DNA from: Acutalibacteraceae bacterium
GTDB lineage: Bacteria; Bacillota; Clostridia; Oscillospirales; Acutalibacteraceae
Assembly (NCBI GenBank): GCA_045587185.1
Contig: JAZNBS010000050.1
Coordinates: 6,564 to 70,563, forward strand
Direction: 5' to 3'
Length of the DNA: 64,000 nucleotides
The notes beneath the pieces were generated by a model that saw only the letters and a list, made by a program, of their open reading frames with translations, did no database searches and was not told the origin of the DNA. Positions 5,168 through 57,499 of the stretch are shown here, piece after piece. Made by a program: the position numbers and the translations under genes. Position 1 is the first letter of the stretch; each line of letters begins with the position of its first letter.

Positions 5168-5187
5168 TTTTTCACTAAGAAGTTTAA

Positions 5188-5216
5188 GCCGCTCGAGAAT
5201 CTTGAGCGGCTTTTCT
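5188..5216 (+). terminator. Rho-independent terminator after hup
   Basis: gccgctcgag-aat-cttgagcggc stem followed by a T-run. Confidence 0.7.
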
Positions 5217-5245
5217 TATGAGTTTAATCTGAGTTTGGAGTTATT

Positions 5246-5488: not shown

Positions 5489-5557
5489 TCATTGAGAGTT
5501 TTTGCACATATAATTCTCTTGATAGGGTAAAGTTATTTAATTTTGTTACCTTAAACT

Positions 5558-6306: not shown

Positions 6307-6361
6307 AATTAATTTTAAAAATAAAGTGCGGATAATTTTTAAGTAAAAAACAAAAGGAGAT

Positions 6362-6658: not shown

Positions 6659-6713
6659 CGGAAATTCTTTATAAAATAATTATATCTGGTTCTTTGGAGG
6701 ATTGGGCTTTTTT

Positions 6714-7193: not shown

Positions 7194-7313
7194 TAATCTG
7201 TAGTACGTGACAATATACTATTGTTTTTGAGCATAATAAATCATTAAAACTGCAGACCGACCGCCTTTTTTACATAATACAGGTGTTAGGTCTGCTTTTT
7301 GTTTGGAGTAAAG

Positions 7314-8162
7314 ATGATAAACGAAATTGACGTAAAATATATTGAGGACTCGGTTGCGAGACTTTGTGTTGAGGCCAATAAAATACTGCCTGAAAGTGTA
7401 TGCAACAGTATCTGCAGTGCTCATAGCACCGAAACCAACGGACTTGGCAAGGAAATAATGTGCGATCTGATGAGAAACATTGAGGCCGCAAAGGAACTGG
7501 ATATACCTATCTGTCAGGACACGGGTATGGCTGTTGTGTTTCTTGAAATCGGTCAGGATGTGCATTTTGTGGGAGGTTTATTGCGTGATGCGGTTGACCG
7601 CGGTGTGGCAAGAGGGTATACCGAGGGTCTTTTAAGAAAATCCGTTGTTATTGACCCGCTCAACCGTTTAAATACCAACGATAATACCCCCGCGATACTT
7701 CATATAGATATGGTTGAAGGTGACAGCGTTAAGGTGACGGTTGCACCAAAAGGATTTGGCAGTGAGAATATGAGTAAGGTCGCAATGCTTACACCGTCCG
7801 AGGGCAGAGAGGGCGTTGTTAACGCTGTTTTGAATATCGTAAAACAGGCAGGCAGTAACCCTTGTCCGCCGATGGTTGTCGGTGTCGGTATCGGCGGTGA
7901 TTTTGAGCAGGTGGCTCTGCTCTCAAAAAAAGCACTTTGCCGTGAACTTGGGACATACAATGCCAATCCTTTTTATGCTGAACTTGAAAATGAACTGCTT
8001 GACAAGATAAATAAACTCAATATCGGTCCACAGGGTTTTGGCGGTGATACCACCGCTTTAGGTGTGAATGTTGAGTATGCTCCCACACATATTGCGGGTC
8101 TTCCTGTGGCTGTTAATATTGGTTGCAATGTCACCCGCCACAAATCTGAAATAATAAAATAA
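7314..8162 (+). CDS. Class I Fe-S hydro-lyase alpha subunit (fumarate hydratase / L-tartrate dehydratase alpha)
   Basis: PICQDTGMAVVFLEIG and GPQGFGG motifs of the FumA N-terminal domain. Confidence 0.8.
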   Translation: MINEIDVKYIEDSVARLCVEANKILPESVCNSICSAHSTETNGLGKEIMCDLMRNIEAAKELDIPICQDTGMAVVFLEIGQDVHFVGGLLRDAVDRGVARGYTEGLLRKSVVIDPLNRLNTNDNTPAILHIDMVEGDSVKVTVAPKGFGSENMSKVAMLTPSEGREGVVNAVLNIVKQAGSNPCPPMVVGVGIGGDFEQVALLSKKALCRELGTYNANPFYAELENELLDKINKLNIGPQGFGGDTTALGVNVEYAPTHIAGLPVAVNIGCNVTRHKSEIIK

Positions 8163-8172
8163 CGGTGAGAAA

Positions 8173-9291
8173 ATGACAAAGTATAATATGATTGCTCCGT
8201 GTATTTTCGGAGTTGAGGGAATATTGGCCGACGAATTACGCCGTTTGGGCGCCGACGATGTCAACGCTGAAAATGGCCGTGTGCTTTTTTCAGGCGATGC
8301 TTCAATGATAGCCGCCGCCAATATCAATTCGCGTTTTGCAGAGCGTATAATGCTAAATCTGGGCACTTTTAAGGCAATGACGTTTACCGATCTTTTTGAC
8401 GGTGTTAAGGCATTGCCGCTTGAAAAATATATTTCGGTTAAGGATGCGTTTCCGGTAAAAGGATGGAGTATCAATTCTCAACTTCACAGTATTCCGGACT
8501 GCCAATCTATAGTCAAAAAGGCTTGTGTTGAACGTTTAAAATCGGTTTATAAGACTAATTGGTTTGAGGAAACAGGTCCCGTTCATCAGTTGCAGTTTTC
8601 AATTATGAAAGATCAGGTAACATTAATGATGGATACTTCGGGTCACGGTCTGCACAAGAGGGGATACCGTGCCAATTCCAATGCCGCACCGATTAAGGAA
8701 ACCCTTGCCGCGGCAATGTGCGATTTGGCAAGAATTTATCCTGATACCAAGATTTTTGACCCGTTCTGCGGAAGTGGAACAATACTTGTTGAGGCCGCAT
8801 TGCTGGCTAAAAAGCAAGCACCCGGTCTTCGCCAACACTTTGCCGCCGAGCGTTTTTCGTTTATTGAAGAAAAGGTTTGGCGTGAGCAACGTGCCGCGGC
8901 AATGGACAGAATTCTGCCTAATATTGAGTTTGAAGCAGTGGGTTATGATATTGACCCCGAGTGTGTGAAACTGACACTTGAAAATGCTAAGAAAGCAGGC
9001 GTTGAAAAATATGTACGTGCTGAGGTACGTGATGTGCGCGATTTTAAACTGCCGGAGGGCAGAACGCTTGTAATAACTAATCCGCCGTACGGTGAGCGTT
9101 TGCTTGATATCCGCGCTGCAGAAGAACTTTATAAGGTTATGGGTAATGTTTTTCCAAAAGAACAGGGTAGAAAGTATTATGTTATAAGTCCCCATGATGA
9201 GTTTGAAAAGTATTTCGGTCGCACGCCGGATAAAAAGCGCAAACTTTACAACGGTATGATAAAATGTGATCTTAATATGTATTTCAAATAG
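8173..9291 (+). CDS. THUMP-domain class I SAM-dependent RNA methyltransferase (YpsC/RlmL-like)
   Basis: N-terminal THUMP-like region, DPFCGSGT SAM motif and ITNPPYGERL catalytic motif. Confidence 0.8.
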   Translation: MTKYNMIAPCIFGVEGILADELRRLGADDVNAENGRVLFSGDASMIAAANINSRFAERIMLNLGTFKAMTFTDLFDGVKALPLEKYISVKDAFPVKGWSINSQLHSIPDCQSIVKKACVERLKSVYKTNWFEETGPVHQLQFSIMKDQVTLMMDTSGHGLHKRGYRANSNAAPIKETLAAAMCDLARIYPDTKIFDPFCGSGTILVEAALLAKKQAPGLRQHFAAERFSFIEEKVWREQRAAAMDRILPNIEFEAVGYDIDPECVKLTLENAKKAGVEKYVRAEVRDVRDFKLPEGRTLVITNPPYGERLLDIRAAEELYKVMGNVFPKEQGRKYYVISPHDEFEKYFGRTPDKKRKLYNGMIKCDLNMYFK

Positions 9292-9323
9292 GCGTTATAA
9301 TTTAAATATGATGTATATATAAA

Positions 9324-9356
9324 ATAGCCTACCTGAATTTTCAGGTAGGCTATTTA
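9324..9356 (+). terminator. Rho-independent terminator
   Basis: atagcctacctga-attt-tcaggtaggctat stem followed by T residues. Confidence 0.75.
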
Positions 9357-9560
9357 TAATTAACTGTTGTTCACTTCTGACTTTTTGACGTGTTCTTTAG
9401 CACAACGATGTCAATAAACACAGTATTTGATTCTAAAATAATTCTCATAACATCAATGCGAAAAAATATGCGATTGTATTAAAATAATAGTGGAAATTCT
9501 GAATATTTATGTTATAATATTTATATTATTGACGAACTTTTAAATATTTGGAGGTAAAAA

Positions 9561-10694
9561 ATGAAGAGAATCTTTTCTGTTTTACTTATTTTTATTTTAA
9601 CACTTTCGCTGACAGTTTCGGTATCAGCACTCGGTAATGCCTTGTCTTGCAAGGTCACGAATGATACACTTAAAGCAGGTCAGAATGTTACTGTTACCGT
9701 GTCGATTGACGGAAACGAGGCTTTTGCTTCGATTGGTCTGACATTTGATTTCAACAGAGATGTTTTTGAAGTTGAGTCGGGAAAATGGGTTATGTCGGGT
9801 TTAGTGCTGACCGATTTCAACAAATCGGAAAATCGTGCTGTTGGCGCACTTTCAAATGCTGTTGTCAAAACAGGTGACATCTTTGAACTTGTTCTTAGGG
9901 TTAAAGACGGTGCACCTGCTGGTACATATTATGTAAAAACTGAACCTAGAATGAAAAACGGAACGCTTGACGTTACTGTTTCAAAAACCGAAATTGCGTT
10001 GAAGGTCGATGCGGGTACTTCCAACACCCCCTCTGACACACAGTCTTCAAATCAGCCCGGCGGTAATGCAAGTGAACCTTTGAACCACGTTCACAGTTAC
10101 GGTGATTTTGTGGTTGATGTTAAAGCTTCTTGTTATGAACCCGGTGTTAAGTCACGTCACTGCGAAGCATGTGGTCACAGAAAAGATATTACAATAATTG
10201 ATGCAACCGGACATAATTGGTCTGATTGGACCGTTGAGGTTGAAGCCACCGTTGACACCGTCGGTAAAAAGGTAAGAACCTGTACAAATGAAGGATGCTC
10301 TGAAAAACAGTATTCCGAAATTGCAAAGTTGAGCGCAGACGGTCACACTCATTTATTTAGCGATTGGTTTTTCACCAAACAGCCTACCTGTACCGAAAAG
10401 GGTGAGGCAACAAGAGTTTGTTCGATTTGCAGTGAACAGGAAAAAACCGAGGCGGCAAGTCTAGGTCATAAGTACGGTCAATGGGTTGTAAAAACCCAAC
10501 CAACTGTTGATAAGGAGGGTCTTATCGAGTGTGTTTGTGAGACCTGCTCAAATGTAAAAACATTCCCTCTTGAAAAATTGAAAGACACCGGCTCGGGTGT
10601 ATTTAGTATGCCGATAATCATTTTGATTTGCATTGTGTTTATTGCAGGTGTTATTGTTGTTTTGGTTATCTTGAATAAAAAGAGAAATATGTAA
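9561..10694 (+). CDS. Secreted, C-terminally membrane-anchored surface protein: cohesin-like N-domain plus four Cys-rich repeats
   Basis: Signal peptide, a beta-rich domain resembling cohesin-type folds, four GH-x-aromatic...CxxC units and a terminal TM followed by KKRNM. Confidence 0.6.
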   Translation: MKRIFSVLLIFILTLSLTVSVSALGNALSCKVTNDTLKAGQNVTVTVSIDGNEAFASIGLTFDFNRDVFEVESGKWVMSGLVLTDFNKSENRAVGALSNAVVKTGDIFELVLRVKDGAPAGTYYVKTEPRMKNGTLDVTVSKTEIALKVDAGTSNTPSDTQSSNQPGGNASEPLNHVHSYGDFVVDVKASCYEPGVKSRHCEACGHRKDITIIDATGHNWSDWTVEVEATVDTVGKKVRTCTNEGCSEKQYSEIAKLSADGHTHLFSDWFFTKQPTCTEKGEATRVCSICSEQEKTEAASLGHKYGQWVVKTQPTVDKEGLIECVCETCSNVKTFPLEKLKDTGSGVFSMPIIILICIVFIAGVIVVLVILNKKRNM

Positions 10695-10699
10695 TTTTA

Positions 10700-10756
10700 A
10701 GGCTGAACTAACGAGGTTTTCAACAAGTGAAAACTCTAAAAGTTCAGCCTTTTTTA
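10700..10756 (+). terminator. Rho-independent terminator (long stem)
   Basis: aggctgaact ... agttcagcct followed by a T-run. Confidence 0.6.
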
Positions 10757-10812
10757 TCGGTTTTTGATTATATCCTCTTTTAAAGGCATATATTTTGTTT
10801 GGAGGGGATATT

Positions 10813-11295
10813 ATGAACCGAGTAATACAATTTATAAAAAATAACCATATTAAGTTTGTGTGGATTGCGGTTACGTTGGCCGCAGGAATTATTGGTGCAC
10901 TGCTTTCGGGTAGTTTTGATGTCTACAGTCAGTACGATAAACCGCCGTTGTCACCGCCTGGAATTGTTTTTCCAATAGTGTGGACTTTGCTCTATATCTT
11001 AATGGGACTTGCGGCGGGTGTCATCGCTGAGTCTTATGACCTTGATAAGAGTAGGGCACTGAAACTTTATATTATTCAGTTGATTATAAACATTTTATGG
11101 CCCTTGATATTTTTCAGATTTAATGCACCAAAACTTGCTCTTTTTTGGTTAGTAATTTTGGTTGTTGCGGTTGTTTTGACAATACGCTCATTTTATTCAA
11201 TCAACTGCCGTGCTGCACTGCTTATGTTACCGTATTTAGCATGGTGTTTGTTTGCAACATACCTCAATTTTGGTATTGTTGTGTTAAATTCTTAA
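10813..11295 (+). CDS. tspO: Tryptophan-rich sensory protein TspO/MBR
   Basis: Five TM segments. PPGIVFPIVWTLLYILMG and LLMLPYLAWCLFATYLN motifs. Confidence 0.8.
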   Translation: MNRVIQFIKNNHIKFVWIAVTLAAGIIGALLSGSFDVYSQYDKPPLSPPGIVFPIVWTLLYILMGLAAGVIAESYDLDKSRALKLYIIQLIINILWPLIFFRFNAPKLALFWLVILVVAVVLTIRSFYSINCRAALLMLPYLAWCLFATYLNFGIVVLNS

Positions 11296-11307
11296 AAAAA
11301 TTGGTAA

Positions 11308-11703
<396 letters not shown>

Positions 11704-11714
11704 TTTGGAGGTAA

Positions 11715-13358
<1,644 letters not shown>

Positions 13359-13373
13359 TTGTGTTTTTTCAGA

Positions 13374-13406
13374 CGACCTTGCCCGTATGCGGCAAGGTCG
13401 TTTTTG
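13374..13406 (+). terminator. Rho-independent terminator after groEL
   Basis: acgaccttgcc ... ggcaaggtcgt followed by TTTT. Confidence 0.8.
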
Positions 13407-13461
13407 TGTTGACAACAATACCTAATTGATGTAGAATTATATAACAGAGGAAGTGACAGTA

Positions 13462-14313
13462 ATGCACGTCAATATTGTGGGTTTGGGTCTTATCGGTGGC
13501 TCGATTGCTAAAACCTTAAAAAAGAACTCCGATTGGTTTATTTCGGGATTTGATATATCTGAGGAAACATTGTCCGAAGCTAAAAGGAACTGTGCAATAG
13601 ATTGTGTTTGGGATGGTGTTACACCAAATTGTGCTGACCTTACGATACTTTGTTTGCAACCAAAAACTGCAAAGTATTTCCTTGAATCTCACGCTCATCT
13701 TTTTAAAAAAGGCTCGGTCGTGACTGATGTCTGCGGTGTCAAGGAATGGGTGGTCAATAGTTTAAGTAAAATATGTATAGAAAACGGTCTTTTGTTTATA
13801 GGCGGACACCCGATGGCAGGCAAGGAGCGAAGTGGTTTTAAAAATTCAGATGAAAACCTTTTTAACCGCGCATGCTATATTCTGACACCTGTTTCTGAGA
13901 CCGACCCTAAGTCATTCGATACCGCTAAACGTTATGTTGAGACACTGAAATGTGCTAAAATTACCGTAACTGACCCCAAAACTCACGACCGATTGATTGC
14001 TTTTACCTCACAGCTACCGCACGTTATTGCGGGCGCTTATGTAAAATCGCCGTCTTGCATTGATCGTAAAGGCTTTTCGGCTGGTTCATTTAAGGATGTG
14101 TCACGTGTTGCCACCGTTGATGAAAATTTGTGGACTGAGTTGTTTTTGAAAAATAGAGAGATGCTTTTGCCCGAAATAGACGGTCTTATTCAGCATCTAT
14201 TAACCTACCGCAACGCCATTGCTGATGGTGACGAACAACTTTTGAGTGAAGCTATACGTATGGGTAGAATAATTAAAGAAAACGACCTTCACAACACCGA
14301 TGAAAGGAAATGA
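13462..14313 (+). CDS. tyrA: Prephenate dehydrogenase
   Basis: NIVGLGLIGGSIA Rossmann motif, GGHPMAGKE and TSQLPHV motifs. Confidence 0.8.
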   Translation: MHVNIVGLGLIGGSIAKTLKKNSDWFISGFDISEETLSEAKRNCAIDCVWDGVTPNCADLTILCLQPKTAKYFLESHAHLFKKGSVVTDVCGVKEWVVNSLSKICIENGLLFIGGHPMAGKERSGFKNSDENLFNRACYILTPVSETDPKSFDTAKRYVETLKCAKITVTDPKTHDRLIAFTSQLPHVIAGAYVKSPSCIDRKGFSAGSFKDVSRVATVDENLWTELFLKNREMLLPEIDGLIQHLLTYRNAIADGDEQLLSEAIRMGRIIKENDLHNTDERK

Positions 14314-14317
14314 TATT

Positions 14318-15754
14318 ATGGTCAATCACGCAATGCTGATGGATTTTTATGAGTCTACGATGGCTAACGGTGCTATTCTGCAGGGTCATGAGGATACTGT
14401 TGCTTATTTTGATATGTTTTTCCGCCGAGTACCTGATAATGGCGGTTTTGCCATCATGGCAGGTCTTGAGCAGTTGATAAATGACCTTAAAAACTTTAAA
14501 TTTTCAAAAGAGGATATCGACTATATGCGTAGTCAGAAACTTTTTGATGAAAAGTTTCTTGATTATCTTGAAAATTTTAAATTTTCCTGCGATATATGGG
14601 CTATCCCTGAGGGTACACCGATTTTTCCGCGTGAACCGATTGTAACTGTACGAGGTCCTATTATTCAGTTATTTTTGATTGAGACTCTGGTGTTACTCAA
14701 TATTAACCACCAGTCACTTATTGCAACCAAGGCTAACCGTATCGTGCGTGCCGCACAGGGTAGGGCGGTTATGGAATTTGGCGCACGCCGCGCTCACGGT
14801 GCTGACGCTTCAATTTGCGGCGCCAGAGCTGCATATATCGGCGGTTGTGTTGGAACTTCCTGTGTTAAGGCCGGCAAAGATTTCAACATTCCTGTTTTGG
14901 GCACAATGGCTCACAGTTGGATACAACTTTTTGACACAGAGTATGACGCTTTTAAGGCTTATGCTGAAGTATATCGCGAAAAATCGCTGTTTTTAGTTGA
15001 TACCTACGATACGCTTAAATCGGGTATACCTAATGTCATTAAGGTTGCCGATGAAGTATTAAAGCCTATGGGTTGCCGTCCGTTAGGTATCAGAATTGAT
15101 AGCGGTGATATAACCTATCTATCGAAAAGAGCAAGGAAAATGCTTGACGAGGCAGGTTATCCCGACTGTGCAATTTGCGTTTCCAACGCGTTGGACGAGT
15201 ACCTTATCCGTGATATGCTTATGCAAGGTGCAAAGGTTGATACCTTCGGCGTTGGAGAACGTCTTATCACGGCATCCAGTGAGGCAGTATTCGGCGGTGT
15301 TTATAAACTAAGTGCCGTAGAGGATAAAAATGGCAGTATTACCCCTAAAATTAAACTTTCGGAGAACACCTCGAAAATTACTTTGCCCGGTTTCAAGCAA
15401 TCGTGGAGACTTTTTGACCGAGAAAGCGGCAAAGCCATTGCAGATGTTATAACCCTTCACGACGAGGTGATTGATGATACCAAAGAGTATGAGATTTTTG
15501 ACCCCGAGTTTACTTGGAAACGAAAGAAGGTACACGATTTTATTGCAAGACCCTTGCAGGTGCAGATATTCAAAAACGGCGAACTGAAATATAAATGTCC
15601 TAGTGCAACTGAAATTCGCGATTACCGTGAGCAACAGGTCGAGTCGCTTTGGGAAGAAGTTCAGCGTTTTGAAAAACCGCATAAATATTACGTTGACCTT
15701 TCGCAAAAACTGTGGGATCTGCATCAGCAGATGATAAGCAAAGTATCTAAATAA
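14318..15754 (+). CDS. pncB: Nicotinate phosphoribosyltransferase
   Basis: MDFYESTMANG, EFGARRAHG and GTMAHSWIQ motifs. Confidence 0.85.
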   Translation: MVNHAMLMDFYESTMANGAILQGHEDTVAYFDMFFRRVPDNGGFAIMAGLEQLINDLKNFKFSKEDIDYMRSQKLFDEKFLDYLENFKFSCDIWAIPEGTPIFPREPIVTVRGPIIQLFLIETLVLLNINHQSLIATKANRIVRAAQGRAVMEFGARRAHGADASICGARAAYIGGCVGTSCVKAGKDFNIPVLGTMAHSWIQLFDTEYDAFKAYAEVYREKSLFLVDTYDTLKSGIPNVIKVADEVLKPMGCRPLGIRIDSGDITYLSKRARKMLDEAGYPDCAICVSNALDEYLIRDMLMQGAKVDTFGVGERLITASSEAVFGGVYKLSAVEDKNGSITPKIKLSENTSKITLPGFKQSWRLFDRESGKAIADVITLHDEVIDDTKEYEIFDPEFTWKRKKVHDFIARPLQVQIFKNGELKYKCPSATEIRDYREQQVESLWEEVQRFEKPHKYYVDLSQKLWDLHQQMISKVSK

Positions 15755-48654: not shown

Positions 48655-49071
48655 TTACTTGTCAAAAGACGGGTTGATTTCGTAGAAATTCTTTTCGTTG
48701 AGTTTATCGGTAAGGTTGCGTAAGCCTTCACCAAAGCGTTGATAGTGAACAACTTCGCGTTGACGTAAGAACCTTATGACATCTCTGACGTCGGGGTCGT
48801 CTGCACAGTAGCGGAGAATATTGTCATAGGTTGTTCTTGCCTTTTGCTCGGCTGCCAATGATTCATGCAAATCGGTTATAGGATCTCCCTTTGATGCAAG
48901 TGCCATTGTACTGTATGGTACGCCTGAAGCCGCTTGGGGATAAATTCCGTTGGTGTGATCAACAAAATATGCGTCAAAACCTGACTTGTTAATGTCATCT
49001 TCCGAGAGGTTGCGGGTTAATTGATAAACGATTGTACCTACCATTTCAAGGTGAGCAAGTTCCTCAGTACC
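48655..49071 (-). pseudogene. cotJC: cotJC 3' portion (Mn-catalase-family spore coat protein), separated from its 5' portion by the inserted element
   Basis: The reading frame upstream of Met 49044 continues as GTEELAHLEM back to 49071. This matches the central E-x-x-H metal motif and C-terminal half of CotJC. Confidence 0.85.
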
Positions 49072-49128
49072 TATTGAAGAATAAAATTGTTTATGTTATA
49101 ATACCACCATCAAGGAGGTAAAAAAGTT

Positions 49129-49452
49129 ATGAGGAAAAACTATTTAATTGACTATTACCGCAACAATATGACACAGGAACAACTGGAAAATGCCCACACC
49201 TTACTTTATGATGATAACAGGTTATTATCTTATATCTGTTATTCATATAATTGCTATGAACTATTACATAGCAAGGGGCATTTATCATTGATAACCAATC
49301 CAGATGCTTTGTTTTCTACACCACAAGCAGAGCAACAATTCATTATGGAATTAAAAAACTACATAAGAGATGTTATTGGTATCAAGAGAGAGGATGTTCA
49401 AGATGGCAACACTAAAAGTAATAGAGCCGACCAAAACAACACTAAAAACTAA
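49129..49452 (+). CDS. Hypothetical 107-aa protein overlapping the recombinase start
   Basis: AAGGAGG RBS, 9 nt before the ATG. No motif recognised. Confidence 0.45.
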   Translation: MRKNYLIDYYRNNMTQEQLENAHTLLYDDNRLLSYICYSYNCYELLHSKGHLSLITNPDALFSTPQAEQQFIMELKNYIRDVIGIKREDVQDGNTKSNRADQNNTKN

Positions 49453-51190
49453 TGATAATAAACCGCACAGAGTTTGTGCGTACTGTCGTGTATCTACTGA
49501 TGAAACCGACCAAAGAAATTCTTTAATAGCACAAAAACAGTTTTTTCAAAGATATTTTGATTTACACCCAAACTGGACTAATGTAGGCATATATGCCGAT
49601 GAAGGACTTTCCGGCACATCCCTTGAAAAAAGAGATGCTTTCAATCGTATGTTGTTTGAGGCCAGACGTGGAAACATTGACATTATTCTCACGAAAGAGG
49701 TTTCCAGATTTTCAAGAAATGTTCACGATATAATGAGCATTGTTGTAGAACTGCAAAACAAAGGTGTTTATGTGTGGTTTTTGTCGGATGAAATTAACAC
49801 CGAGAGCATCAAAGACCGTGAGCGACTAACCCAGATAGCCACAAATGCCGAGCAAGAGAGTTTAAGAACATCAAACCGTGTTAGGTGGGGACACCAACAA
49901 CAAATGCAACTGGGTGTTGTTTTCGGCAGAAAAGAAATGTACGGTTATAATATCGTAAAGGATGATAACGGCATCCAACACTTTGAAATTATACCAGAAG
50001 AAGCCGAGGTCATCAAGAACATTTTTGAATGGTTCGCATCTGGTGAGGGTACACACCGAATTGCACGCAGATTAGAACAACAAGGAATTGAAACCAAGCG
50101 ATATAAAAACGGATGGAGTACAACCGTTATACTCCGCATTTTGCGAAATGAGAAATATGTGGGCGATTTAGCACAAGGCAAAACCTACACACCCAACCCA
50201 CTCTCTCATAAGAAAAAATACAATACAGGCGAATCCACCCGCTATTACATTACAGACCACCACCCAGAAAGTGCAATCATTGACCGTGAACTCTGGAACA
50301 AGGTACAAGCGATACTGGAAGAAAAAGCACCCAGCGAAGAAATAAAAGCGAAACACTCCAACCGCTACTGGACGAGCGGAAAGGTGTTTTGTGGGTTATG
50401 CGGTCAAAGGTATGTCAGTTACGTAAAAAAGCAAAAGAACACACCTTATCGTGCTTGGGTATGCTTTGAGAACCACCAGAGAGGTCGCTACAAGCAGATA
50501 ACACTTGATACAGGCGAAACTGCTACTGTCGGTTGTAATGCTTTGAGAGTGAATGACAGAGTGCTTAAAACCGCCGTTCACGATATTGTTACCGAGTACA
50601 TCATACCGCATAAAGAAAATATCCTTGCAGAGATGCGAAAAGAGATAGAACAACTATCAAAACCGCAAGACCACACAAAGAAAATCGCATCTATACAAAA
50701 GGAAATAGAACAAGCACAACAAAAGATAAACAAACTCACACAGGGTTGGATGGATGGCATCGTTCCAGAAAATGCCTATACAATGAATATCGGACCTGCT
50801 AATGCACGATATGAGCAATTACAGGCAGAACTCCAAAAACTGCAAATACAGAACAATTCAGTAAGTGCAGAGGTGCAAATCTATGAGGAATACATAGAGC
50901 AACTGCAAAGCATCCTATCACTCACCGATGATGAGCTTAACGATGCTTTTTATGAGAGAGTTACAAAACAGATTTATGTTTATCCATCAAACCTTTTAGA
51001 GTTTCGCCTGTCATTTATTCCTATGCCTATTTATTTACAATATAAGGCATCTGGTAGAGCAGATTTTTACAAGGTGGAACTTACCATCCTAACCGCCGAG
51101 CAATTCGCTGAAATGCTCAAAAATGCCCCTAAAAACGATTTTACGGAACAAACAGATACAGACACCACTGGCAACACAAACAACTCTTAA
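49403..51190 (+). CDS. Large serine recombinase (resolvase domain, recombinase domain, zinc ribbon and coiled coil)
   Basis: AYCRVSTDETDQ contains the catalytic Ser. Also ILTKEVSRFSRN, a CGLCG...C zinc ribbon and a long coiled coil (KEIEQAQQKINKL). Confidence 0.95.
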   Translation: MATLKVIEPTKTTLKTNDNKPHRVCAYCRVSTDETDQRNSLIAQKQFFQRYFDLHPNWTNVGIYADEGLSGTSLEKRDAFNRMLFEARRGNIDIILTKEVSRFSRNVHDIMSIVVELQNKGVYVWFLSDEINTESIKDRERLTQIATNAEQESLRTSNRVRWGHQQQMQLGVVFGRKEMYGYNIVKDDNGIQHFEIIPEEAEVIKNIFEWFASGEGTHRIARRLEQQGIETKRYKNGWSTTVILRILRNEKYVGDLAQGKTYTPNPLSHKKKYNTGESTRYYITDHHPESAIIDRELWNKVQAILEEKAPSEEIKAKHSNRYWTSGKVFCGLCGQRYVSYVKKQKNTPYRAWVCFENHQRGRYKQITLDTGETATVGCNALRVNDRVLKTAVHDIVTEYIIPHKENILAEMRKEIEQLSKPQDHTKKIASIQKEIEQAQQKINKLTQGWMDGIVPENAYTMNIGPANARYEQLQAELQKLQIQNNSVSAEVQIYEEYIEQLQSILSLTDDELNDAFYERVTKQIYVYPSNLLEFRLSFIPMPIYLQYKASGRADFYKVELTILTAEQFAEMLKNAPKNDFTEQTDTDTTGNTNNS

Positions 51191-51208
51191 AACGAGCCAC
51201 AATGAATT

Positions 51209-51235
51209 AAAGCAGGGTTTTCGCCCTGCTTTTTC
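51209..51235 (+). terminator. Rho-independent terminator after the recombinase gene
   Basis: agcaggg-ttttcg-ccctgct followed by TTTT. Confidence 0.75.
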
Positions 51236-51333
51236 AATATTCAGTTTTCTGTCATATCTTTTTTGAAAAAAGGTATGGCTATTTTGACAGAATTATGCTA
51301 TAATCATTGTTAATGTGTTTGGAGGTGAAAATA

Positions 51334-52383
51334 ATGCAAGAGTTACTAATGTCTTTGTTACAATTAGTTTTACTATTGCTTAACCCAGTTTTTTTAATTC
51401 CTGCAATAATAATTATTGTTGTGCTTGTAAAGAAAGACAAGGAATATAAAAACGGTGCATATTATCAAATCACCAAACACCCCTATTTTTCAGTAAAACA
51501 CAATACTGGTAGATATGGCGAATATCTCACATACAAATATCTCAAACAGTTTGAAACCAACGGAGCGAAATTTCTTTTTAATATCTACATACCCAAAGAG
51601 AACGGCGAAACCACCGAAATTGATGTGTTAATGATATGTAAAAAAGGTTTATTTGTTTTTGAGAGCAAAAATTATAGTGGTTGGATTTTCGGTAGTGAAA
51701 ATCAAAAGAATTGGTATCAAACATTACCTGCTGGTAGAGGTCGGAGCCATAAAGAGCATTTTTACAATCCAATAATGCAAAACCGCTCACACATAAAACA
51801 CCTTAAAGCATTTTTAGGCGAACAAGTACCTATGCGGTCAATCATTGTTTTTTCCGATAGATGCACATTAAAAAGTGTTCAAATCCGTAGCAATGATATA
51901 AGCGTTATAAATCGTTATAGCGTTGCACCAGTTGTATCTGGTATCTGTAACCAAATTCCCAATGATTTACTTACTGATAACGATATTACAGAGATTTATA
52001 ACAAATTATATCCCTACACACAAGTTGATGAACTTGCCAAAATGCAACACATAGCAAATATCCATAACAATTTGAAACCGCAAACTGCTCAACCAGTTAA
52101 TGAAACACCTGCTCAAGTTATTCCACAAAACAAGACCGAAATAGTTACAGAGCAACCAGATGCGGTTGCTATTGATACAACAATCGCAACAGAAGAAACA
52201 CCGATTATTGAAACTACCGAACCAGCAACAACAGAAACAAGAGAGCAACAAACATTAAAATGTCCTAAGTGTAACGGTGATTTAATTTTAAGAACTGCAA
52301 CCAGAGGAGCAAATGCAGGTAATCAATTTTATGGTTGCTCAAATTATCCTAAATGTAAATACATACAAAACATAACAAATTAA
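51334..52383 (+). CDS. NERD-domain protein with an N-terminal TM and a C-terminal topoisomerase-type C4 zinc finger
   Basis: EIDVLMICKKGLFVFESKNYSG is the NERD core. CPKCNGDLILR...FYGCSNYPKCKY is a zf-C4-Topoisom-like finger. Confidence 0.75.
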   Translation: MQELLMSLLQLVLLLLNPVFLIPAIIIIVVLVKKDKEYKNGAYYQITKHPYFSVKHNTGRYGEYLTYKYLKQFETNGAKFLFNIYIPKENGETTEIDVLMICKKGLFVFESKNYSGWIFGSENQKNWYQTLPAGRGRSHKEHFYNPIMQNRSHIKHLKAFLGEQVPMRSIIVFSDRCTLKSVQIRSNDISVINRYSVAPVVSGICNQIPNDLLTDNDITEIYNKLYPYTQVDELAKMQHIANIHNNLKPQTAQPVNETPAQVIPQNKTEIVTEQPDAVAIDTTIATEETPIIETTEPATTETREQQTLKCPKCNGDLILRTATRGANAGNQFYGCSNYPKCKYIQNITN

Positions 52384-52420
52384 AAAATCCTGTGAGCAAA
52401 TTTGCTCATAGGATTTTTTT
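52383..52420. terminator. Bidirectional terminator between the NERD gene and mob
   Basis: aatcctgtgagcaaa/tttgctcataggatt flanked by A- and T-runs. Confidence 0.75.
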
Positions 52421-53471
52421 AATGGTCCAAAATATCATCAATCGTTCGGTGTTGCTCTTGGATGCTCTCTTGTAAATCCGTGAGATATTTTAAGAGTGTG
52501 ATGTTTTTGCCTTCGTGTTGAATTACAACATTGCCGGCTAATTTAAGTAAACTCTCATATGTATTACATTTATCAATGAGTTCAAGATAACGTTCTGGAA
52601 CGAGTTCGCCGTGTTCTTTAACCATTGCTTTAATGTCAGCGAGATTTTGTTCAGCAGTTTTAAGCTCATCCAGTTTTAGAGAATATTCAGCGTCAACCTG
52701 TGCTTTCCATTCTCTAATAGATTGATGTTTACGAAATTTAGGTATCTTTTCGCCGTACTTTTCACAGTATGCCTTTACCTGCTCATAGGTAATTGAACCA
52801 TCCTTATTGCCAAAACCTTTTCTTTTTGCACGTTGACACAAAGCAAGATAATCGTTATATCTGGAATGACCTCGTTTCAAATCAAACTCTTTCATTGCCT
52901 CGGCATACCTATCTTGTAGTTTACTCAAATCGCCACGGCCACCTAAAATATCTTTTGCCATAAACAATAAATTTCTGCCGATTGTTGCATACACAAAATG
53001 GATATGTGGAGTGTCCTCATCCATATGCAGTTCAAGTCTTACGGGCACACAACCCTTTGAATTAAATTCCTTTTCAAGAAATTTCATATTTGCTCGGACC
53101 CAGTTATCAACATCAACCTTTCCTGCCATATCTGGCGAAAAGGTTAGTACACCCTCAAATGCTTGTGCTGCTCTTTTCTGCATATGTCTTTTTGCTTTTT
53201 CATCACCTGTCCGTGTTGCATTGAATTTGTCAATTTCGGAATTATAAAATTCTCTTGCCTTATCTATTTTGGAAGCAATTTTTTTGAAGGGCCAAGGGTT
53301 GTGTAGTATGCTCCGATTTTCACTAGATAATTCTGGATGTGAAATATCAGCGGCTTGTTCGTGCTTATCCAAATGTCGTAAAGATTGCGACAGAGTTTTT
53401 GCACCACGACCGTGTGTTTGTAATTTCACTATTCTAAAAATGCAAAACTCTTTTGACTTCTCTTTTGCCAT
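52419..53471 (-). CDS. MobV-family (Pre/Mob) plasmid mobilization relaxase
   Basis: LELHMDEDTPHIHFV is the HxDE..PHxH motif III of MobV relaxases. The N-terminal region is relaxase-like and the C-terminus is a coiled coil. Confidence 0.85.
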   Translation of the reverse strand: MAKEKSKEFCIFRIVKLQTHGRGAKTLSQSLRHLDKHEQAADISHPELSSENRSILHNPWPFKKIASKIDKAREFYNSEIDKFNATRTGDEKAKRHMQKRAAQAFEGVLTFSPDMAGKVDVDNWVRANMKFLEKEFNSKGCVPVRLELHMDEDTPHIHFVYATIGRNLLFMAKDILGGRGDLSKLQDRYAEAMKEFDLKRGHSRYNDYLALCQRAKRKGFGNKDGSITYEQVKAYCEKYGEKIPKFRKHQSIREWKAQVDAEYSLKLDELKTAEQNLADIKAMVKEHGELVPERYLELIDKCNTYESLLKLAGNVVIQHEGKNITLLKYLTDLQESIQEQHRTIDDILDH

Positions 53472-53679
53472 AAAAAATTTTTACACATCCTTTCCTCAAT
53501 TTTTTACATCCAAAACAAAAAACTTTGTGAAGTTTTTGTTTTGTCTTTGCCTTGCTAAAAATCTTTTTTCGTTGATACGAAAAAACCTTTTCATCAAGCC
53601 GTATCATTCACACTCATTGCTGATGCAATAAGTATGAAAGATACTGCAAAAAAATAGCGGAAATTCTATGTACCCACTA

Positions 53680-53850
53680 CAAACAAGCAAACTTGTTTGA
53701 TGGGCCAAGGTGCTACCTTGGAACCGTTTAAGGATTGCATCCTTAAAAATCCTGCCACCGAAAAAAGCGTATACGCTTTTTTATACGGCAAAAAATACCG
53801 TATGCGGTAAGGTGAAAAATACCTTACCCACCGCCTTAATTTTTGCCGTA
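53680..53850. other. Hairpin-dense non-coding region upstream of mob: candidate oriT (or single-strand origin)
   Basis: Inverted repeats at 53680-53699, 53705-53721, 53729-53745, 53761-53782, 53796-53809 and 53806-53828. Distal inverted pair tacggcaaaaa/tttttgccgta. Confidence 0.4.
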
Positions 53851-53973
53851 TTGTATGAACTATATTTTTGTGTTTGAGAACAAAAAATATAATTCATACT
53901 TTGTGTAAGACAATAACGGCTGATGCCTTATATTTTGCCTTACACATACGGATGAAAGGAGTTGTTTTTTATT

Positions 53974-54498
53974 ATGGATAAAAAAGATATACGTGTTTAT
54001 CTGGATGCTGACTTTTGCGACCACTTAAAAAGCATTGCAAAAGATAAAGGTATTTCTGTAAATTCGCTTGTTAGCGAATTAGTGAAAAAGAAATATCCTA
54101 TGCAGAGCAAAGATATTTCCATCAAACTGAATGATGATAAAATTGTTTTACTTAAAAAGGCGGCACAAAAGAGAAATACAACAATTAGTGAATTGTTGAT
54201 TTCTCTTGTTGATGATTTCTTGTTGTCGGTGAAACAACCCGCACTTGATGAAATTCCGCTTGATGCCGAAACTGGTGAAACTGCATCAACCATTGCCTGT
54301 GAAAGTGAGAATGTGCAACCTGTTGATGTTGTAAAACCAACCGCAACGGATGATGACCGCAAACAGAAAGAACGCCGACTTGCTGATGTTAATTACAAAC
54401 TCAAAAGAGCATACAATGGTGATAAACTACCAAAAGATGAATTTCAGCAGTTAAGAGATGAACAAGCATCTTTACGTGCTGAACTCGGTCATAACTAA
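53974..54498 (+). CDS. Hypothetical protein with two ribbon-helix-helix (CopG-like) modules
   Basis: IRVYLDADFCDHLKSIAKDKGISVNSLVSELV and ISIKLNDDKIVLLKKAAQKRNTTISELLISLV resemble tandem RHH units. Confidence 0.5.
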   Translation: MDKKDIRVYLDADFCDHLKSIAKDKGISVNSLVSELVKKKYPMQSKDISIKLNDDKIVLLKKAAQKRNTTISELLISLVDDFLLSVKQPALDEIPLDAETGETASTIACESENVQPVDVVKPTATDDDRKQKERRLADVNYKLKRAYNGDKLPKDEFQQLRDEQASLRAELGHN

Positions 54499-54796
54499 AA
54501 ATCATCACAAAATCGCTCCACCGAGCGATTTTCACAGTACCAACAAAGTGATACTAAAATCACACATCACCGTAGGTGATACCAAAAGCGACAGTTTAAC
54601 ACCATCTAACTGATACTCATTCAACACTTTCAAAGGTTCGCCGCCTGTCCGTGCAATTTATCGCACGGGATAACATATCAAATCACAAAACCACCTGCAC
54701 AGGAAAGCAGGTGGTTTTTTCATAAAGTGCAACAACCTATTCAACGCCAAGAAATAAAATCACAAGAACATCAAAAAATCCGTATGCCAACTTTAA

Positions 54797-55001
54797 GAGT
54801 TTGCAATCACCGATTTTTCACATCGCATCAGCGATGCCAAAAAATATATACAACTCTTAAAGGTTAAGTTTGCAAACCCTTAAAATAACCAAAAAGAAAA
54901 AGCGAACATTCTCAAATGTTCGCCACCAGTAAAACCGCATTAAGTTAATCAGACCATTAAAAACACGAGCATCTGGAATTTATAAGCTCAAGTTTGCAAT
55001 C
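54797..55001 (+). repeat. Three dispersed copies of the (a/g)AGTTTGCAA(t/a)C motif with flanking CTTAAA: iteron-like repeats
   Basis: gagtttgcaatc at 54797-54808, aagtttgcaaac at 54866-54877 and aagtttgcaatc at 54990-55001. Copies 2 and 3 are followed by c(c/t)cttaaaata. Confidence 0.45.
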
Positions 55002-55357
55002 TCTTAAAATACACACATCCAGAATAACACACTTTAACTCATATCTTTTTTATCCGCAAAGTACGGCCACCGTAACACCTACTTTGCGGAATCCGTTATA
55101 GAAAACCTAACGGTTCCAACGTATGTTAAATTAACACTATTGAATATAAGAAGAGAGATACAAAAACGAAAAAATGCCGTAAACCCTTATAAATACAAGA
55201 GAAAACGGCATTTTCAATGGTGACAAATATGTCTTATAATAGTGACAGATTTGTCAGGGTTTAGTGCAAAAAAATGCACCAAATTAAAAACAAATCTATC
55301 ATATTTACCTTACAAATAAAAAAGACCATCAAACGATGGTCGGAAAGGGGTAATAAT

Positions 55358-55819
55358 ATGACAACTAAAATTGAAAAAGGAATTTCAATAAACACCATAA
55401 CAGGCGAAGTTTGTGATGTTTATATTGAGAAAGAGGTTAGCAGCCAAAACTTTTGGAAAATCTGGTTAGGTGATATTTTAACAGTTTTGGGTATCATTTC
55501 AAATAGTAAACAGTTAGATGTTATAATTTACATTATGGAAAATATAAGACCAAGCGACAATCTTTTTATTGGTAGTTATGAAAAAATCGCCAATGGTTCT
55601 GGTGTGTCTAAAAGAACTGTTATAAGAATAATGCAAAAACTATTTGAAACAGAATTTTTAAAAAAGGTTCAAAATGGTGTTTACGCAGTAAATGCCAAAT
55701 ATTTAGTTAAAGGCAATGAGAATAAGCGTAGAATGATTATTGACTACCAAAGCACACTTGAACCTTACAATAAGAATGATGCATCCGCAAACCTAAACGA
55801 TGATACGGATGCAGAATAA
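55358..55819 (+). CDS. RepL-like / winged-helix plasmid replication protein
   Basis: SKQLDVIIYIMENI...IANGSGVSKRTVIRIMQKL resembles the HTH core of Firmicute RepL-type initiators. AAAGGGG RBS. Confidence 0.55.
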   Translation: MTTKIEKGISINTITGEVCDVYIEKEVSSQNFWKIWLGDILTVLGIISNSKQLDVIIYIMENIRPSDNLFIGSYEKIANGSGVSKRTVIRIMQKLFETEFLKKVQNGVYAVNAKYLVKGNENKRRMIIDYQSTLEPYNKNDASANLNDDTDAE

Positions 55820-55930
55820 AAAACGATATGCAGAATTTTTCGTTTTTCAAACACATCAATCATAATTATATTTGAGTGAAGTAGAGAGCACTCAAATCCA
55901 TTCAGATTGTTCTTACATAGAGCATATCGG

Positions 55931-55961
55931 GGAGCAAGGTTATCCGCCTTGCTCCTTTTTT
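55931..55961 (+). terminator. Rho-independent terminator after the RepL-like gene
   Basis: ggagcaagg-ttatccg-ccttgctcc followed by TTTTTT. Confidence 0.75.
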
Positions 55962-56031
55962 ATTTTTGCTCATAGGCAAAAAGGAAAGCACACCCGAAAA
56001 GGTGTGCTTAAAATTTTACTTAATTACTCAA

Positions 56032-56268
56032 TTAAGAAACAGTGCTATAAACGATGTCAGTAGCATCTGCAATAGTTACAGCGCCGCCAGAAGCCTGTGA
56101 AAGACCAACATTCATTGCTTCCTTAGAAACATTGAAAAGTGACTGAGTGGTGTTCTTTACAGCCTCAGCAATGTACTTACCGAAAGGTGTAGCAAGTGCA
56201 ATCATAACAACGAGTACGAGTACACAGATAACAACCCAACCGTAATTAGAAAGTGTTTCCTTATCCAT
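56032..56268 (-). CDS. Hypothetical 78-aa protein with one N-terminal TM
   Basis: GAAAGGAG RBS. MDKETLSNYGWVVICVLVLVVMIALATPFG followed by a polar tail. Confidence 0.5.
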   Translation of the reverse strand: MDKETLSNYGWVVICVLVLVVMIALATPFGKYIAEAVKNTTQSLFNVSKEAMNVGLSQASGGAVTIADATDIVYSTVS

Positions 56269-56461
56269 TTAGATTTTCTCCTTTCAAAAATTCAATTTTA
56301 TTTGCAAATAAACCTTTTTGTATGTCATTCCAGATAATGCAAACGATTGAGATATTCGTGCTTAAACAGATATTTGATACATTGTTTTTATTTGCTTGAT
56401 TTAATTATGTTAAATACTTTTTGAAAACGAAGAAAACTTTTTATTGATATAGGAAACAGAC

Positions 56462-56498
56462 AAAAAAGATATGCAGAAAATATCTACATATCTTTTTT
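56462..56498. terminator. Hairpin with an A-run and a T-run just inside the right end of the element
   Basis: [28 protein letters not shown], about 70 nt downstream of the truncated cotJC stub on the minus strand. Confidence 0.5.
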
Positions 56499-56570
56499 AC
56501 TGCAGACCCAGCCGAAAACTGCTTGAACGCTGATTTTGTTGCAAAAAACCGACATTTCCTATAACTTTTT

Positions 56571-56783
56571 TCAAAATGCACAATATTTTTCCTCTATACC
56601 AACATCAGTCAGAAGACCTTTGAGTTCGGCTGTTGGCATTGCATAACGTTGACTGAGGTATCTCAAACTTGCGCCTATCTCTCCATCGGGACCGCCGTAT
56701 TGCGAAATGATAAGGCTTGCAAGTTTAGGGTTTGTCTGCTTTATCTTAATGGGATATTGAAGTTTTTTCTGATATTGCCACAT
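56571..56783 (-). pseudogene. cotJC: cotJC 5' portion. CotJC-matching sequence runs to the break region 56589-56600, then a short element-encoded tail and a stop codon
   Basis: MWQYQKKLQYPIKIKQTNPKLASLIISQYGGPDGEIGASLRYLSQRY...LLTDVG matches the CotJC N-terminus. The ORF ends ...IEEKYCAF*. Confidence 0.85.
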
Positions 56784-57035
56784 TTAGTTTGCCTCCTTTT
56801 CCCAGGGCCATGGTGCTTTTATCCAGTCAAATCCGTCAGAGCCGAAATCGGAACTGAGTGTAAGTGGACCGTATTCTTCTTCGTATTCCTTGACAAGTTC
56901 CTTATATCTCAGGCGGTAAATTTCAAACTTTTTGAGTGCCTCTTTGTCACAGGGATGAGTGTCAAGAAAAAGTCCTGTTTCAAGCATAGCAAATTGCGCC
57001 GCGCGTACGGCATCAAGAAGTCTCTGCTTTTCCAT
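56784..57035 (-). CDS. cotJB: Spore coat protein CotJB
   Basis: FAMLETGLFLDTHPCDKEAL...Y...YGPLT and the C-terminal W.W...PWPWE motif. Confidence 0.9.
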   Translation of the reverse strand: MEKQRLLDAVRAAQFAMLETGLFLDTHPCDKEALKKFEIYRLRYKELVKEYEEEYGPLTLSSDFGSDGFDWIKAPWPWEKEAN

Positions 57036-57256
57036 TATTTTCTCGCCCCCGTAAATTTGCCGTAAAACGGCTTGTCAAGGTCAGGGAAAAGTGTGCCGCG
57101 TTCCAGAGCGTCATTCTCGGAATAGACTTCTCCCCATTTTTGCATTGGCACATAAGCCATGGTTAAAGGCAGGTTTTTCAGTTGTGTGTCACTGAATTTC
57201 ATCTGTTTGTCATGTCGCTCAGGCATAACAAAGCCTTTAAATTTCAAATCTGACAT
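57035..57256 (-). CDS. cotJA: Spore coat-associated protein CotJA
   Basis: LAMAYVPMQKW...Y....AL..GT.FP.L..PF pattern. Overlaps the cotJB start. Confidence 0.85.
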   Translation of the reverse strand: MSDLKFKGFVMPERHDKQMKFSDTQLKNLPLTMAYVPMQKWGEVYSENDALERGTLFPDLDKPFYGKFTGARK

Positions 57257-57422: not shown

Positions 57423-57499
57423 CCGGGTGTAGCCCAGTTTGGTAGAGCGCTTGAATGGGGTTCAAGAGGCCGCAGGTTCGACTCCTGTCACTCGGACCA
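57423..57499 (+). tRNA. tRNA-Pro (anticodon GGG)
   Basis: Hand-folded cloverleaf. Acceptor stem CCGGGTG/CACTCGG (one G-U pair), anticodon stem CTTGA/TCAAG, loop AT-GGG-GT, T-loop TTCGACT and an encoded CCA. There is one C-A mismatch in the D stem. Confidence 0.85.

Follow-up and report, generated by a model that had tools for sequence, protein, structure and literature searches.

A probable integrative mobilizable element splits the sporulation gene cotJC in an Acutalibacteraceae bacterium and has relatives at the same site in gut Oscillospirales

Introduction

The coat gene cotJC of an Acutalibacteraceae bacterium is split by a 7,529-bp insert that we take to be an integrative mobilizable element (IME) of four exchangeable modules and not the remnant of a prophage, a reading to which we give a probability of about 0.8. 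The insert occupies positions 49070–56598 of a 64,000-nt stretch of DNA, referred to here as the window (assembly GCA_045587185.1, contig JAZNBS010000050.1, positions 6,564–70,563 of the forward strand), its limits being set by the sequence and by comparison of junctions. It possesses an integration and excision module of its own along with a relaxase gene and an oriT-like site, and none of its seven open reading frames (ORFs) encodes a coupling protein or a type IV secretion system (T4SS) mating-pore component, which is the gene content by which an IME is defined. An initial annotation of this DNA had proposed a mobilizable element built from plasmid modules in place of a prophage remnant; domain searches accept both the MobV and the RepL assignments, and the complete relatives of the element are 4.8–9.1 kb in length with no larger prophage among them. 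Sequence comparison further indicates that a family of such elements occupies the same site in cotJC in many gut Oscillospirales and moves between species.

In the mechanism that we propose, the first module is a site-specific recombination unit consisting of the att arms, a 107-aa ORF (orf107) and a large serine recombinase. The recombinase would catalyze integration at a GG dinucleotide of cotJC and, together with orf107 acting as a directionality factor, would excise the element precisely, yielding a 7,529-bp circle and an intact cotJC. The second module serves mobilization and comprises a MobV relaxase, an oriT-like hairpin with a GpT site and a ribbon-helix-helix (RHH) protein that may be an accessory protein or a repressor; the relaxase would nick the circle at oriT and a co-resident conjugative element would transfer the strand. 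The third module is a RepL initiator that would support plasmid-like replication of the excised circle, while the fourth is variable cargo, in the window a protein with NERD and zinc-ribbon domains and what is probably a truncated surface-protein gene. The features of the element and of its insertion site are collected in Table 1.

Table 1. Features of the cotJC element and its insertion site, in window coordinates
Feature	Position	Strand	Remarks
cotJC 3' half	48655..49069	-	Pfam Mn_catalase; codons T-E-E-L-A-H-L-E onward to stop; joins 5' half in frame
GG crossover dinucleotide, recombinase-proximal junction	49070..49071		Junction comparison, ~30 loci
Recombinase-proximal att arm (TATTGAAGAATAAAATTGT...) with sigma-70-like promoter	49072..49102	+	Junction sequence kept in nearly all loci
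orf107, 107 aa, candidate recombination directionality factor	49129..49452	+	Strong ribosome-binding site; overlaps start of recombinase gene
Large serine recombinase, 595 aa from MATLKV	49403..51190	+	ORF opens at 49370; Pfam and PHROGs
NERD nuclease-related domain with C-terminal Top1-type zinc ribbon, variable cargo	51307..52383	+	Pfam
MobV-family relaxase	52419..53471	-	Mob_Pre 50.6 bits (Pfam cutoff 25.5)
Hairpin-rich divergent mob/RHH control region, 490 nt	53472..53961		DNA fold z-score -13.6 versus shuffled sequence
oriT-like core	53671..53735	-	Two hairpins then TAGTGGG/TA, on the mob strand, upstream of mob
Putative ribbon-helix-helix DNA-binding protein, 178 aa	53962..54498	+	Probable start ATG at 53974
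Structured non-coding spacer, 712 nt	54499..55210		Three GTTTGCAAWC; candidate single-strand origin or protein-binding array
repL promoter-like site	55211..55257	+	13-nt inverted repeat (55221-55256) flanks TATAAT; possible operator
RepL plasmid replication initiator, 154 aa	55355..55819	+	Pfam RepL 85.9 bits (cutoff 20.3)
Single-pass membrane ORF, 78 aa	56032..56268	-	One hydrophobic helix; no family
Distal att arm (cotJC sense: TATAGAGGAAAAATATTGTGCATTT)	56570..56598		In register with proximal arm
cotJC 5' half	56783..56599	-	Pfam Mn_catalase profile positions 1-66; ends with GG copy at 56599-56600
cotJB	57035..56784	-	cotJ operon, upstream of cotJC
cotJA	57256..57035	-	cotJ operon, upstream of cotJB and cotJC

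The split gene and the ends of the element

The 5' part of cotJC ends ...GAT GTT GG and the 3' part begins T ACT GAG GAA CTT GCT CAC, with a GG dinucleotide present at each junction (49070–49071 and 56599–56600). Joining the two parts in silico at GG yields a 600-nt in-frame ORF encoding a CotJC of 199 aa, which along its full length shares 92–94% identity with CotJC proteins of 199 aa from uninterrupted genes. A single empty cotJC site was retrieved from relatives (L043; L001–L125 are our working labels for the loci and contigs compared with the window element), and it aligns without gaps to the joined gene. The presence of GG at both junctions and the return of an intact-like CotJC upon rejoining define the insert as a discrete element of 7,529 bp; boundaries drawn initially at 49072–56598 were correct to within 2 bp. 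The same operation at GG restored intact ORFs of 173–202 aa in all 14 loci where it could be performed. The shortest of these, the joined cotJC of L002 (16560–16937; 173 aa), aligns poorly in its C-terminal part, which may reflect decay. No second copy of cotJC was found within the 64-kb window. Rfam returned nothing credible within the element; a tRNA gene lies just upstream of cotJA at 57423–57496 (Rfam, 56.9 bits).

Attachment sites and orientation

Comparison of about 30 loci places the target at the GG within the codons for the conserved G-T-E-E motif of cotJC. At the N-half junction, GG is followed in all loci by element sequence (TATTGAAG... or TATAGAGG...); at the C-half junction the next base is the third of the Gly codon and is that of the host (T, A or C, giving GGT, GGA or GGC). 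Both attP arms contain ATTGT at +15 to +19 from the centre, in register with each other, and the predicted junctions read ...AATGCACAATATTTTTCCTCTATA-CC-TATTGAAGAATAAAATTG... for attP and ...CTGACTGATGTT-GG-TACTGAGGAACTT... for attB. These are simple att sites, consisting of a 2-bp GG crossover with quasi-symmetric arms adjoining the recombinase gene. A crossover at a palindromic TA, which would explain the existence of two insertion orientations, was considered and rejected: the variable third base of the Gly codon occurs only at the C-half junction, and the att arms fall into register only around GG.

A promoter resembling the sigma-70 type, with an extended −10 element (TTGAAG-17-TGnTATAAT), is conserved within the proximal arm, and the ribosome-binding site of orf107 follows directly. 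Since this promoter sits inside the att arm, binding of the recombinase would overlap its own promoter.

Elements are found at cotJC in both orientations with the same att arms, 19 loci having the orientation opposite to that of the window. With the arms placed in the same frame (window 49070–49102 and 56570–56600; L006–L035), elements oriented like that of the window have CC at the centre and those of the opposite orientation have GG, and insertion orientation is clade-specific in the recombinase tree. The central dinucleotide sets the polarity of recombination by serine integrases, a rule with which the two orientation classes and their CC and GG centres agree.

The recombination module

The recombinase matches the Pfam families Resolvase (94.6 bits) and Recombinase (87.8 bits), with Zn_ribbon_recom at 24.5 bits falling just below the cutoff of 25.3, and it matches the integrase family phrog_95 at 390 bits. 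Its translation contains the motif CRVSTDE; the Ser nucleophile and the zinc ribbon of a large serine recombinase are both present. Orthologues with 49–84% identity reside at cotJC in about 30 species.

Six ORFs had originally been counted in the element; all six stand, and the conserved orf107 had been missed. A total of 41 homologues of orf107 were found, and the gene lies upstream of, and overlaps, the recombinase gene in 29 of 30 loci of the cotJC family, with 32–84% identity. It belongs to no Pfam family, its sole PHROGs match is phrog_17904, of unknown function, and an AlphaFold2 (AF2) model, all-helical and of moderate confidence (pLDDT 68.8), was without a match in a PDB search.

The mobilization module

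The protein between the cargo gene and the hairpin-rich region, called a MobV relaxase from the outset, scores well above the Mob_Pre cutoff (Table 1), and we consider it, from its sequence, to be a divergent member of the MobV family. A PDB search with the single sequence gave no match; a profile of the family was needed to reach the MobM relaxase domain of pMV158 (PDB 4LVI), with an E value of 4.5e-16. In this alignment window residue H33 corresponds to the MobM histidine in HNER, and HMDEDTPHIH, the metal-binding HxDE...PHxH motif, corresponds to HLDESTPHMH. Across 18 homologues with identity down to 22%, H33, H156 and H158 are invariant and E152 nearly so; the nucleophile role of the motif I histidine has been described for MobM (PMC5863519). 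An exact-protein look-up returned no record of the relaxase or of a 100%-identical cluster representative, and a metagenome scan with the Mob alignment retrieved mainly distant relaxases of 30–48% identity, among which only L045, discussed below, was informative.

The region upstream of mob is as rich in hairpins as first described, its folding being far stronger than that of shuffled sequence (Table 1). On the mob strand its core reads as a CCAAGG-n5-CCTTGG hairpin, then a CAAACAAG-loop-CTTGTTTG hairpin, then TAGTGGGTA. This core is kept in nine loci whose Mob proteins are 48–87% identical to that of the window, across which the loop is variable and the first stem varies with its pairing mostly retained. 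The oriT of pMV158 likewise consists of a hairpin with the GpT nick site about 8 nt downstream (PMC5863519), and by analogy, with a GpT about 7–8 nt downstream of its hairpin, the core at 53671–53735 is taken here as oriT-like.

The 178-aa protein encoded divergently from mob had been proposed to contain two RHH domains. RHH-like matches do occur in two places, to RHH_4, CopG_antitoxin and DUF6364 at residues 7–49 and to DUF6290 at residues 52–79, but all are below the Pfam cutoffs and the call is weak. PHROGs assigns the protein to Arc-like repressors (E ~1e-6), and the best PDB match, to a CopG-family chain, reaches only E ~0.4. The protein is 95% identical in L001.

The replication module and the structured spacer

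The RepL assignment is firm (Table 1), and its counterparts on small plasmids are 50–52% identical: 52% for the RepL of free plasmids of 4.7–6 kb from the Bacillus cereus group and 50% for that of a 6-kb Clostridium baratii plasmid. The initial annotation had also described iteron-like repeats and operator palindromes ahead of repL. Repeats and an inverted repeat are indeed present, but the repeats travel with the Mob-RHH genes. The spacer between the RHH gene and repL is strongly folded (z-scores −7.3 and −8.3) and contains the palindrome GTTTGCAAWC three times (54798, 54867 and 54991), two of the copies lying within 28-nt repeats that share 86% identity at a spacing of 124 nt. In the comparison with L001 this spacer has a mean identity of 91% over the alignment, with similarity lost near 55210, immediately ahead of the promoter and operator of repL, whereas the L001 RepL is only 52% identical to that of the window. 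L002 shares the spacer block up to 55024 and has a RepL that is 34% identical. Conservation of the spacer next to diverged RepL proteins assigns the repeats to the Mob-RHH module; as judged from these alignments they are probably not RepL iterons, and they may constitute a single-strand origin or sites bound by the RHH protein.

Cargo and the absence of phage genes

The NERD/zinc-finger protein reported initially is supported by Pfam matches to NERD (104.8 bits) and Zn_ribbon_Top1 (49.5 bits). Its gene is replaced by Dcm and HNH_2 genes in L002 and L125. The one small membrane protein also stands, as a 78-aa ORF with a single hydrophobic helix. Over its first ~53 residues it shares 66–73% identity with the N-terminal ends of Lipase_GDSL and LRR_5 proteins that related elements encode, and it is probably the truncated signal-anchor stump of a variable surface-protein gene that was replaced, to judge from these matches. 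The larger variable proteins that share this signal-anchor N-terminus include a GDSL lipase, a BspA-type LRR protein and a DUF285 protein. As had been observed from the sequence, the window element contains no capsid, terminase, portal, tail or lysis family in either PHROGs or Pfam.

A family of elements at cotJC

A scan with the recombinase, covering one genome per species, returned 32 loci, nearly all of them from gut or rumen metagenome-assembled genomes (MAGs) of Oscillospirales (Acutalibacteraceae, Faecousia, Vescimonas and Flemingiibacterium). In almost all of these, orf107 and the recombinase gene abut a split cotJC beside cotJA and cotJB. Fifteen elements, including that of the window, are complete on their own contigs and measure 4.8–9.1 kb. 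A domain census of 91 other ORFs in the complete elements detected Mob_Pre 11 times, tyrosine integrase four times, RepL twice and Rep_OBD once, in addition to restriction-modification, acetyltransferase and similar cargo; Mob_Pre is carried by 11 of the 15 complete elements. The elements devoid of Mob_Pre in L009, L010, L012 and L026 form a clade, and their ORFs of ~295 aa are likely to be the carriers of the four Phage_integrase (tyrosine recombinase) proteins.

Phage structural, packaging and lysis families are absent from all 15 complete elements, the sole phage-structural label being one untraced tail-fibre PHROG match. The small size of the relatives and their lack of phage structural families rule out that the element of the window is a piece of a larger prophage visible in them. 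The only viral-database match, an IMG/VR contig (L044, positions 1–9700) sharing its recombinase match with L033, carries a separate prophage in tandem with an intact IME. This prophage has genes for RecT, YqaJ and an HTH repressor together with a 542-aa serine recombinase of its own, 21% identical to that of the window, and it joins cotJC about 20 bp deeper in the gene, past the GTEELA codons. Because of this offset, cotJC hosts at least two distinct attachment sites.

Other insertions at related genes were noted. In L031 (4462–9608) a second insertion with two serine-recombinase genes breaks the C-terminal half of cotJC in addition to the IME, and Laceyella sacchari has a cotJC insertion as well. 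In C. difficile R20291 the phi027 prophage adjoins the CotJC-like Mn-catalase gene CDR20291_1465 (PMC11222575). This last case hints that phages insert preferentially at genes of the cotJC family in further Clostridia as well.

Module exchange and horizontal transfer

The modules of the window element recur in other combinations. L002, a metagenome contig with its element in cotJC, shares the recombination unit at 85% and the Mob-RHH block at 83% nucleotide identity; its RepL is a different one, and a Dcm/HNH system takes the position of NERD. L125 shares the recombination unit at 94% over 2.15 kb and carries Dcm/HNH/lipase cargo. Conversely, L001 has a Mob-RHH-RepL block that is 87% identical at the nucleotide level joined to an unrelated 644-aa serine recombinase (27% identity), in an element (approximately 5494–14678) situated beside a rumA-like gene and not at cotJC, a positive outcome of the search at other insertion sites that had been suggested at the outset. 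The same Mob-RHH-RepL design with a serine recombinase of 643/644 aa is found in L039–L041 (approximately 2925–11627); like L001, these adjoin a rumA-like gene, which encodes a TRAM plus U5 methyltransferase.

A free plasmid form, which had been suggested as a target of searches, gave a divided result: PLSDB contains no nucleotide match, but a distantly related pair of Mob and RepL genes occurs on a small circle. This is L045, a 3,079-bp contig whose terminal overlap of 141 bp indicates a free circle of about 2.94 kb; the sole genes on it are those for Mob (38% identity) and RepL (44.5%), and Pfam confirms each of them.

The horizontal mobility postulated for the element is supported by disagreement between element similarity and host similarity in L002, L023 and L125. 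The element genes of L002 are ~84% identical to those of the window at the amino acid level and the host CotJB is 47% identical. In L125 the host flank, aligned by eye, matches at 19 of 27 nt, versus 94% for the adjacent element. L023, the closest host by its flanking genes, has a recombinase that is just 72% identical and an element in the opposite orientation. Modules of plasmid type that combine with exchangeable recombination units and pass from species to species amount to the behavior of an IME (PMC5704250, PMC12084326).

Several observations weigh against the interpretation of the insert as a mobile IME. The relaxase scores 85 bits on the NCBIfam MobV model, below the cutoff of 100, and is just 22–31% identical to plasmid MobV proteins. 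With neither a recognizable fold nor a family for orf107, it is the position of the gene that makes it a candidate directionality factor. No origin that co-varies with RepL was found, as the repeat-bearing spacer does not vary along with the protein. Among PLSDB plasmids and INPHARED phages, megablast with the entire element as query gave no match. Neither a circular form nor an attP junction was found, a pattern scan of IMG/VR with the proximal arm giving 0 matches and the contigs with 93–98% identical orf107 being integrated copies. Nor was a helper conjugative element identified; elsewhere in the window, a census for conjugation genes returned mostly ABC transporters.

Is excision tied to sporulation?

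One proposal for the relationship between the element and its host gene is a skin-like one, in which excision in the mother cell during sporulation rebuilds cotJC, the forespore keeps the integrated copy and the plasmid modules serve occasional spread only. This is compatible with the IME interpretation and adds to it a claim about timing, for which we would put the chances somewhat short of even. The insert interrupts a gene of the cotJA-cotJB-cotJC operon and its removal in silico restores the ORF. In B. subtilis the cotJ operon is sigma-E dependent and mother-cell specific, and by analogy the split gene would be expressed in the mother cell. Published intervening elements are nearly all in mother-cell genes, and the overlap of orf107 with the recombinase gene mirrors that of skr with spoIVCA (PMC6957869). 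Other elements also target cotJC (the L044 prophage, the L031 insertion and that of Laceyella). In the 19 loci of opposite orientation, orf107-rec starts about 45–60 nt past the truncated cotJC' stop, which leaves no space for a terminator, so that orf107-rec should be co-transcribed with cotJ; in the orientation of the window, however, cotJ transcription does not reach orf107-rec. Moreover, the sole conserved promoter before orf107-rec is sigma-A-like (TTGAAG-17-TATAAT), with no sigma-E or sigma-K motif recognized there, and transfer of an IME requires vegetative excision. Both cotJC halves are intact in the 14 testable loci though the recombinases have diverged, but recent, repeated insertion would explain this equally well. 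CotJC-family genes are also dispensable in C. difficile, and the sister elements are not in any recognized sporulation gene.

Several of the same facts favor a second proposal, that of an ordinary IME whose integrase targets a conserved stretch of a dispensable gene, with cotJC inactivated and excision rare and independent of sporulation; we hold this to be plausible without giving it even odds. Conserved genes, rumA, traG and SNF2 among them, are the typical insertion sites of serine-integrase IMEs (PMC5704250), and the elements of L001 and L039–41 lie outside recognized sporulation genes, beside the rumA-like methyltransferase gene. The promoter is of the sigma-A type, in C. difficile the genes of the CotJC family are redundant or non-essential for building the coat (PMC11222575), and the shorter joined cotJC of L002 may indicate decay. 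Against inactivation of a dispensable gene are the lack of a second cotJC copy in the 64-kb window, the otherwise intact state of the split halves everywhere, and the repeated use of cotJC, a mother-cell gene, by several unrelated elements.

A bolder version of the skin-like proposal is that a mobilizable, self-replicating family has adopted a mother-cell-only coat gene as its home, such that excision in the mother cell would repair cotJC and at the same time release an oriT-bearing circle, amplified by RepL, before lysis. We judge this unlikely.

It is more doubtful still that the window copy is an inert fossil, once mobile and now unable to excise, replicate or transfer. The small membrane ORF does look truncated and the IMG/VR pattern scan detected no circular form, but the six main ORFs have their full length, their catalytic residues are conserved, and the att arms match the family consensus. 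Copies that are 94% identical exist elsewhere with other cargo, which points to recent activity of the lineage of the window element.

A degraded prophage, that is, a classic skin-type remnant with few non-structural genes left, is highly improbable and already contradicted: its recombinase and orf107 do match phage families (the integrase family phrog_95 and one of unknown function) and one relative lies on an IMG/VR "viral" contig, but neither the window element nor any of the other 14 complete elements contains a structural, packaging or lysis family, all complete elements are confined to 4.8–9.1 kb, Mob, oriT and RepL serve plasmid functions and have homologues on plasmids, and the IMG/VR contig holds a separate prophage, with its own 21%-identical recombinase, in tandem with an IME.

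Relation to known elements

IMEs that combine a serine integrase with a MOBV relaxase are already known. Those of the MOBV1 type in Firmicutes, described from streptococci and Faecalibacterium (PMC5357655, PMC5704250, PMC12084326), resemble the window element in being small and inserting into a conserved gene by means of their own serine recombinase, in carrying MobV and their own oriT without mating-pore genes and with optional replication genes, and in their variable defence or adaptation cargo and module swapping. The cotJC family differs in its coat-gene target, in the 107-aa ORF overlapping the integrase gene and in its two insertion orientations. The window element also uses RepL as its maintenance gene, and RepL is not among the IME maintenance genes that a search of the review PMC5704250 returned. 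A second known example is Tn4451/Tn4453 of Clostridium perfringens and C. difficile, with the large resolvase TnpX and the Mob/Pre protein TnpZ. These are alike in size (~6 kb) and in having a large serine recombinase that excises a circle and a Mob_Pre relaxase acting at an adjacent oriT. Tn4451 has many GA target sites and no Rep gene, whereas the cotJC family uses one site in nearly all of the ~30 loci.

Among intervening elements of sporulation genes, skin (in sigK) and SPbeta (in spsM) of B. subtilis share with the window the arrangement of an attL-rdf-int-attR unit splitting a mother-cell gene, and in skin the directionality-factor gene skr overlaps the 5' end of spoIVCA (PMC6957869) as orf107 overlaps the recombinase gene here. 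They differ in being (pro)phage genomes of 48 kb and 134 kb, versus 7.5 kb with plasmid functions in the window. It had been stated in the initial annotation that known sporulation intervening elements are all prophages or their remnants, which does not hold: gin, in gerE of Bacillus cereus ATCC10987, is a non-phage element that splits a mother-cell sporulation gene, has a large serine recombinase with a small directionality factor and is suspected of horizontal spread (PMC5595907). Sporulation-timed excision is proven for gin, in which no transfer or replication module has been identified, whereas in the window element these modules are explicit and the timing is unproven.

Small Firmicutes plasmids that carry RepL and MobV provide the remaining point of comparison, through the 52% identical RepL of the 4.7–6 kb plasmids and the 2.94-kb circular contig with distantly related Mob and RepL genes; these differ in being free replicons without an integrase, and PLSDB holds no nucleotide-level relative of the element. 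Among the papers searched, none joins an intervening element, sporulation and a relaxase; a cotJC-interrupting element has been mentioned once, without description. What is new here is an IME with oriT-like site, MobV and RepL as the intervening element of a sporulation gene, its family of ~30 species and the natural polarity variants within that family.

Significance

Work on rearrangement of sporulation genes has dealt mostly with prophages and their remnants, gin being the one described non-phage case, without known means of transfer. To a recombination unit specific for cotJC, the family described here brings an explicit toolkit for transfer and replication (MobV, oriT and RepL) in dozens of uncultured gut Clostridia. 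It also displays in nature the exchange of recombination units, and of plasmid modules, that laboratory swaps predicted (PMC6957869). Genome engineering may profit from this set of related serine integrases, in which the 2-bp core is defined and polarity varies naturally, and for annotation the split cotJC genes in these MAGs should not be labelled pseudogenes. The family offers a concrete system in which to ask whether developmental excision and conjugative mobilization can be combined. If release of the circle from the mother cell were to prove true, horizontal spread would be coupled to sporulation without the germ line bearing any cost.

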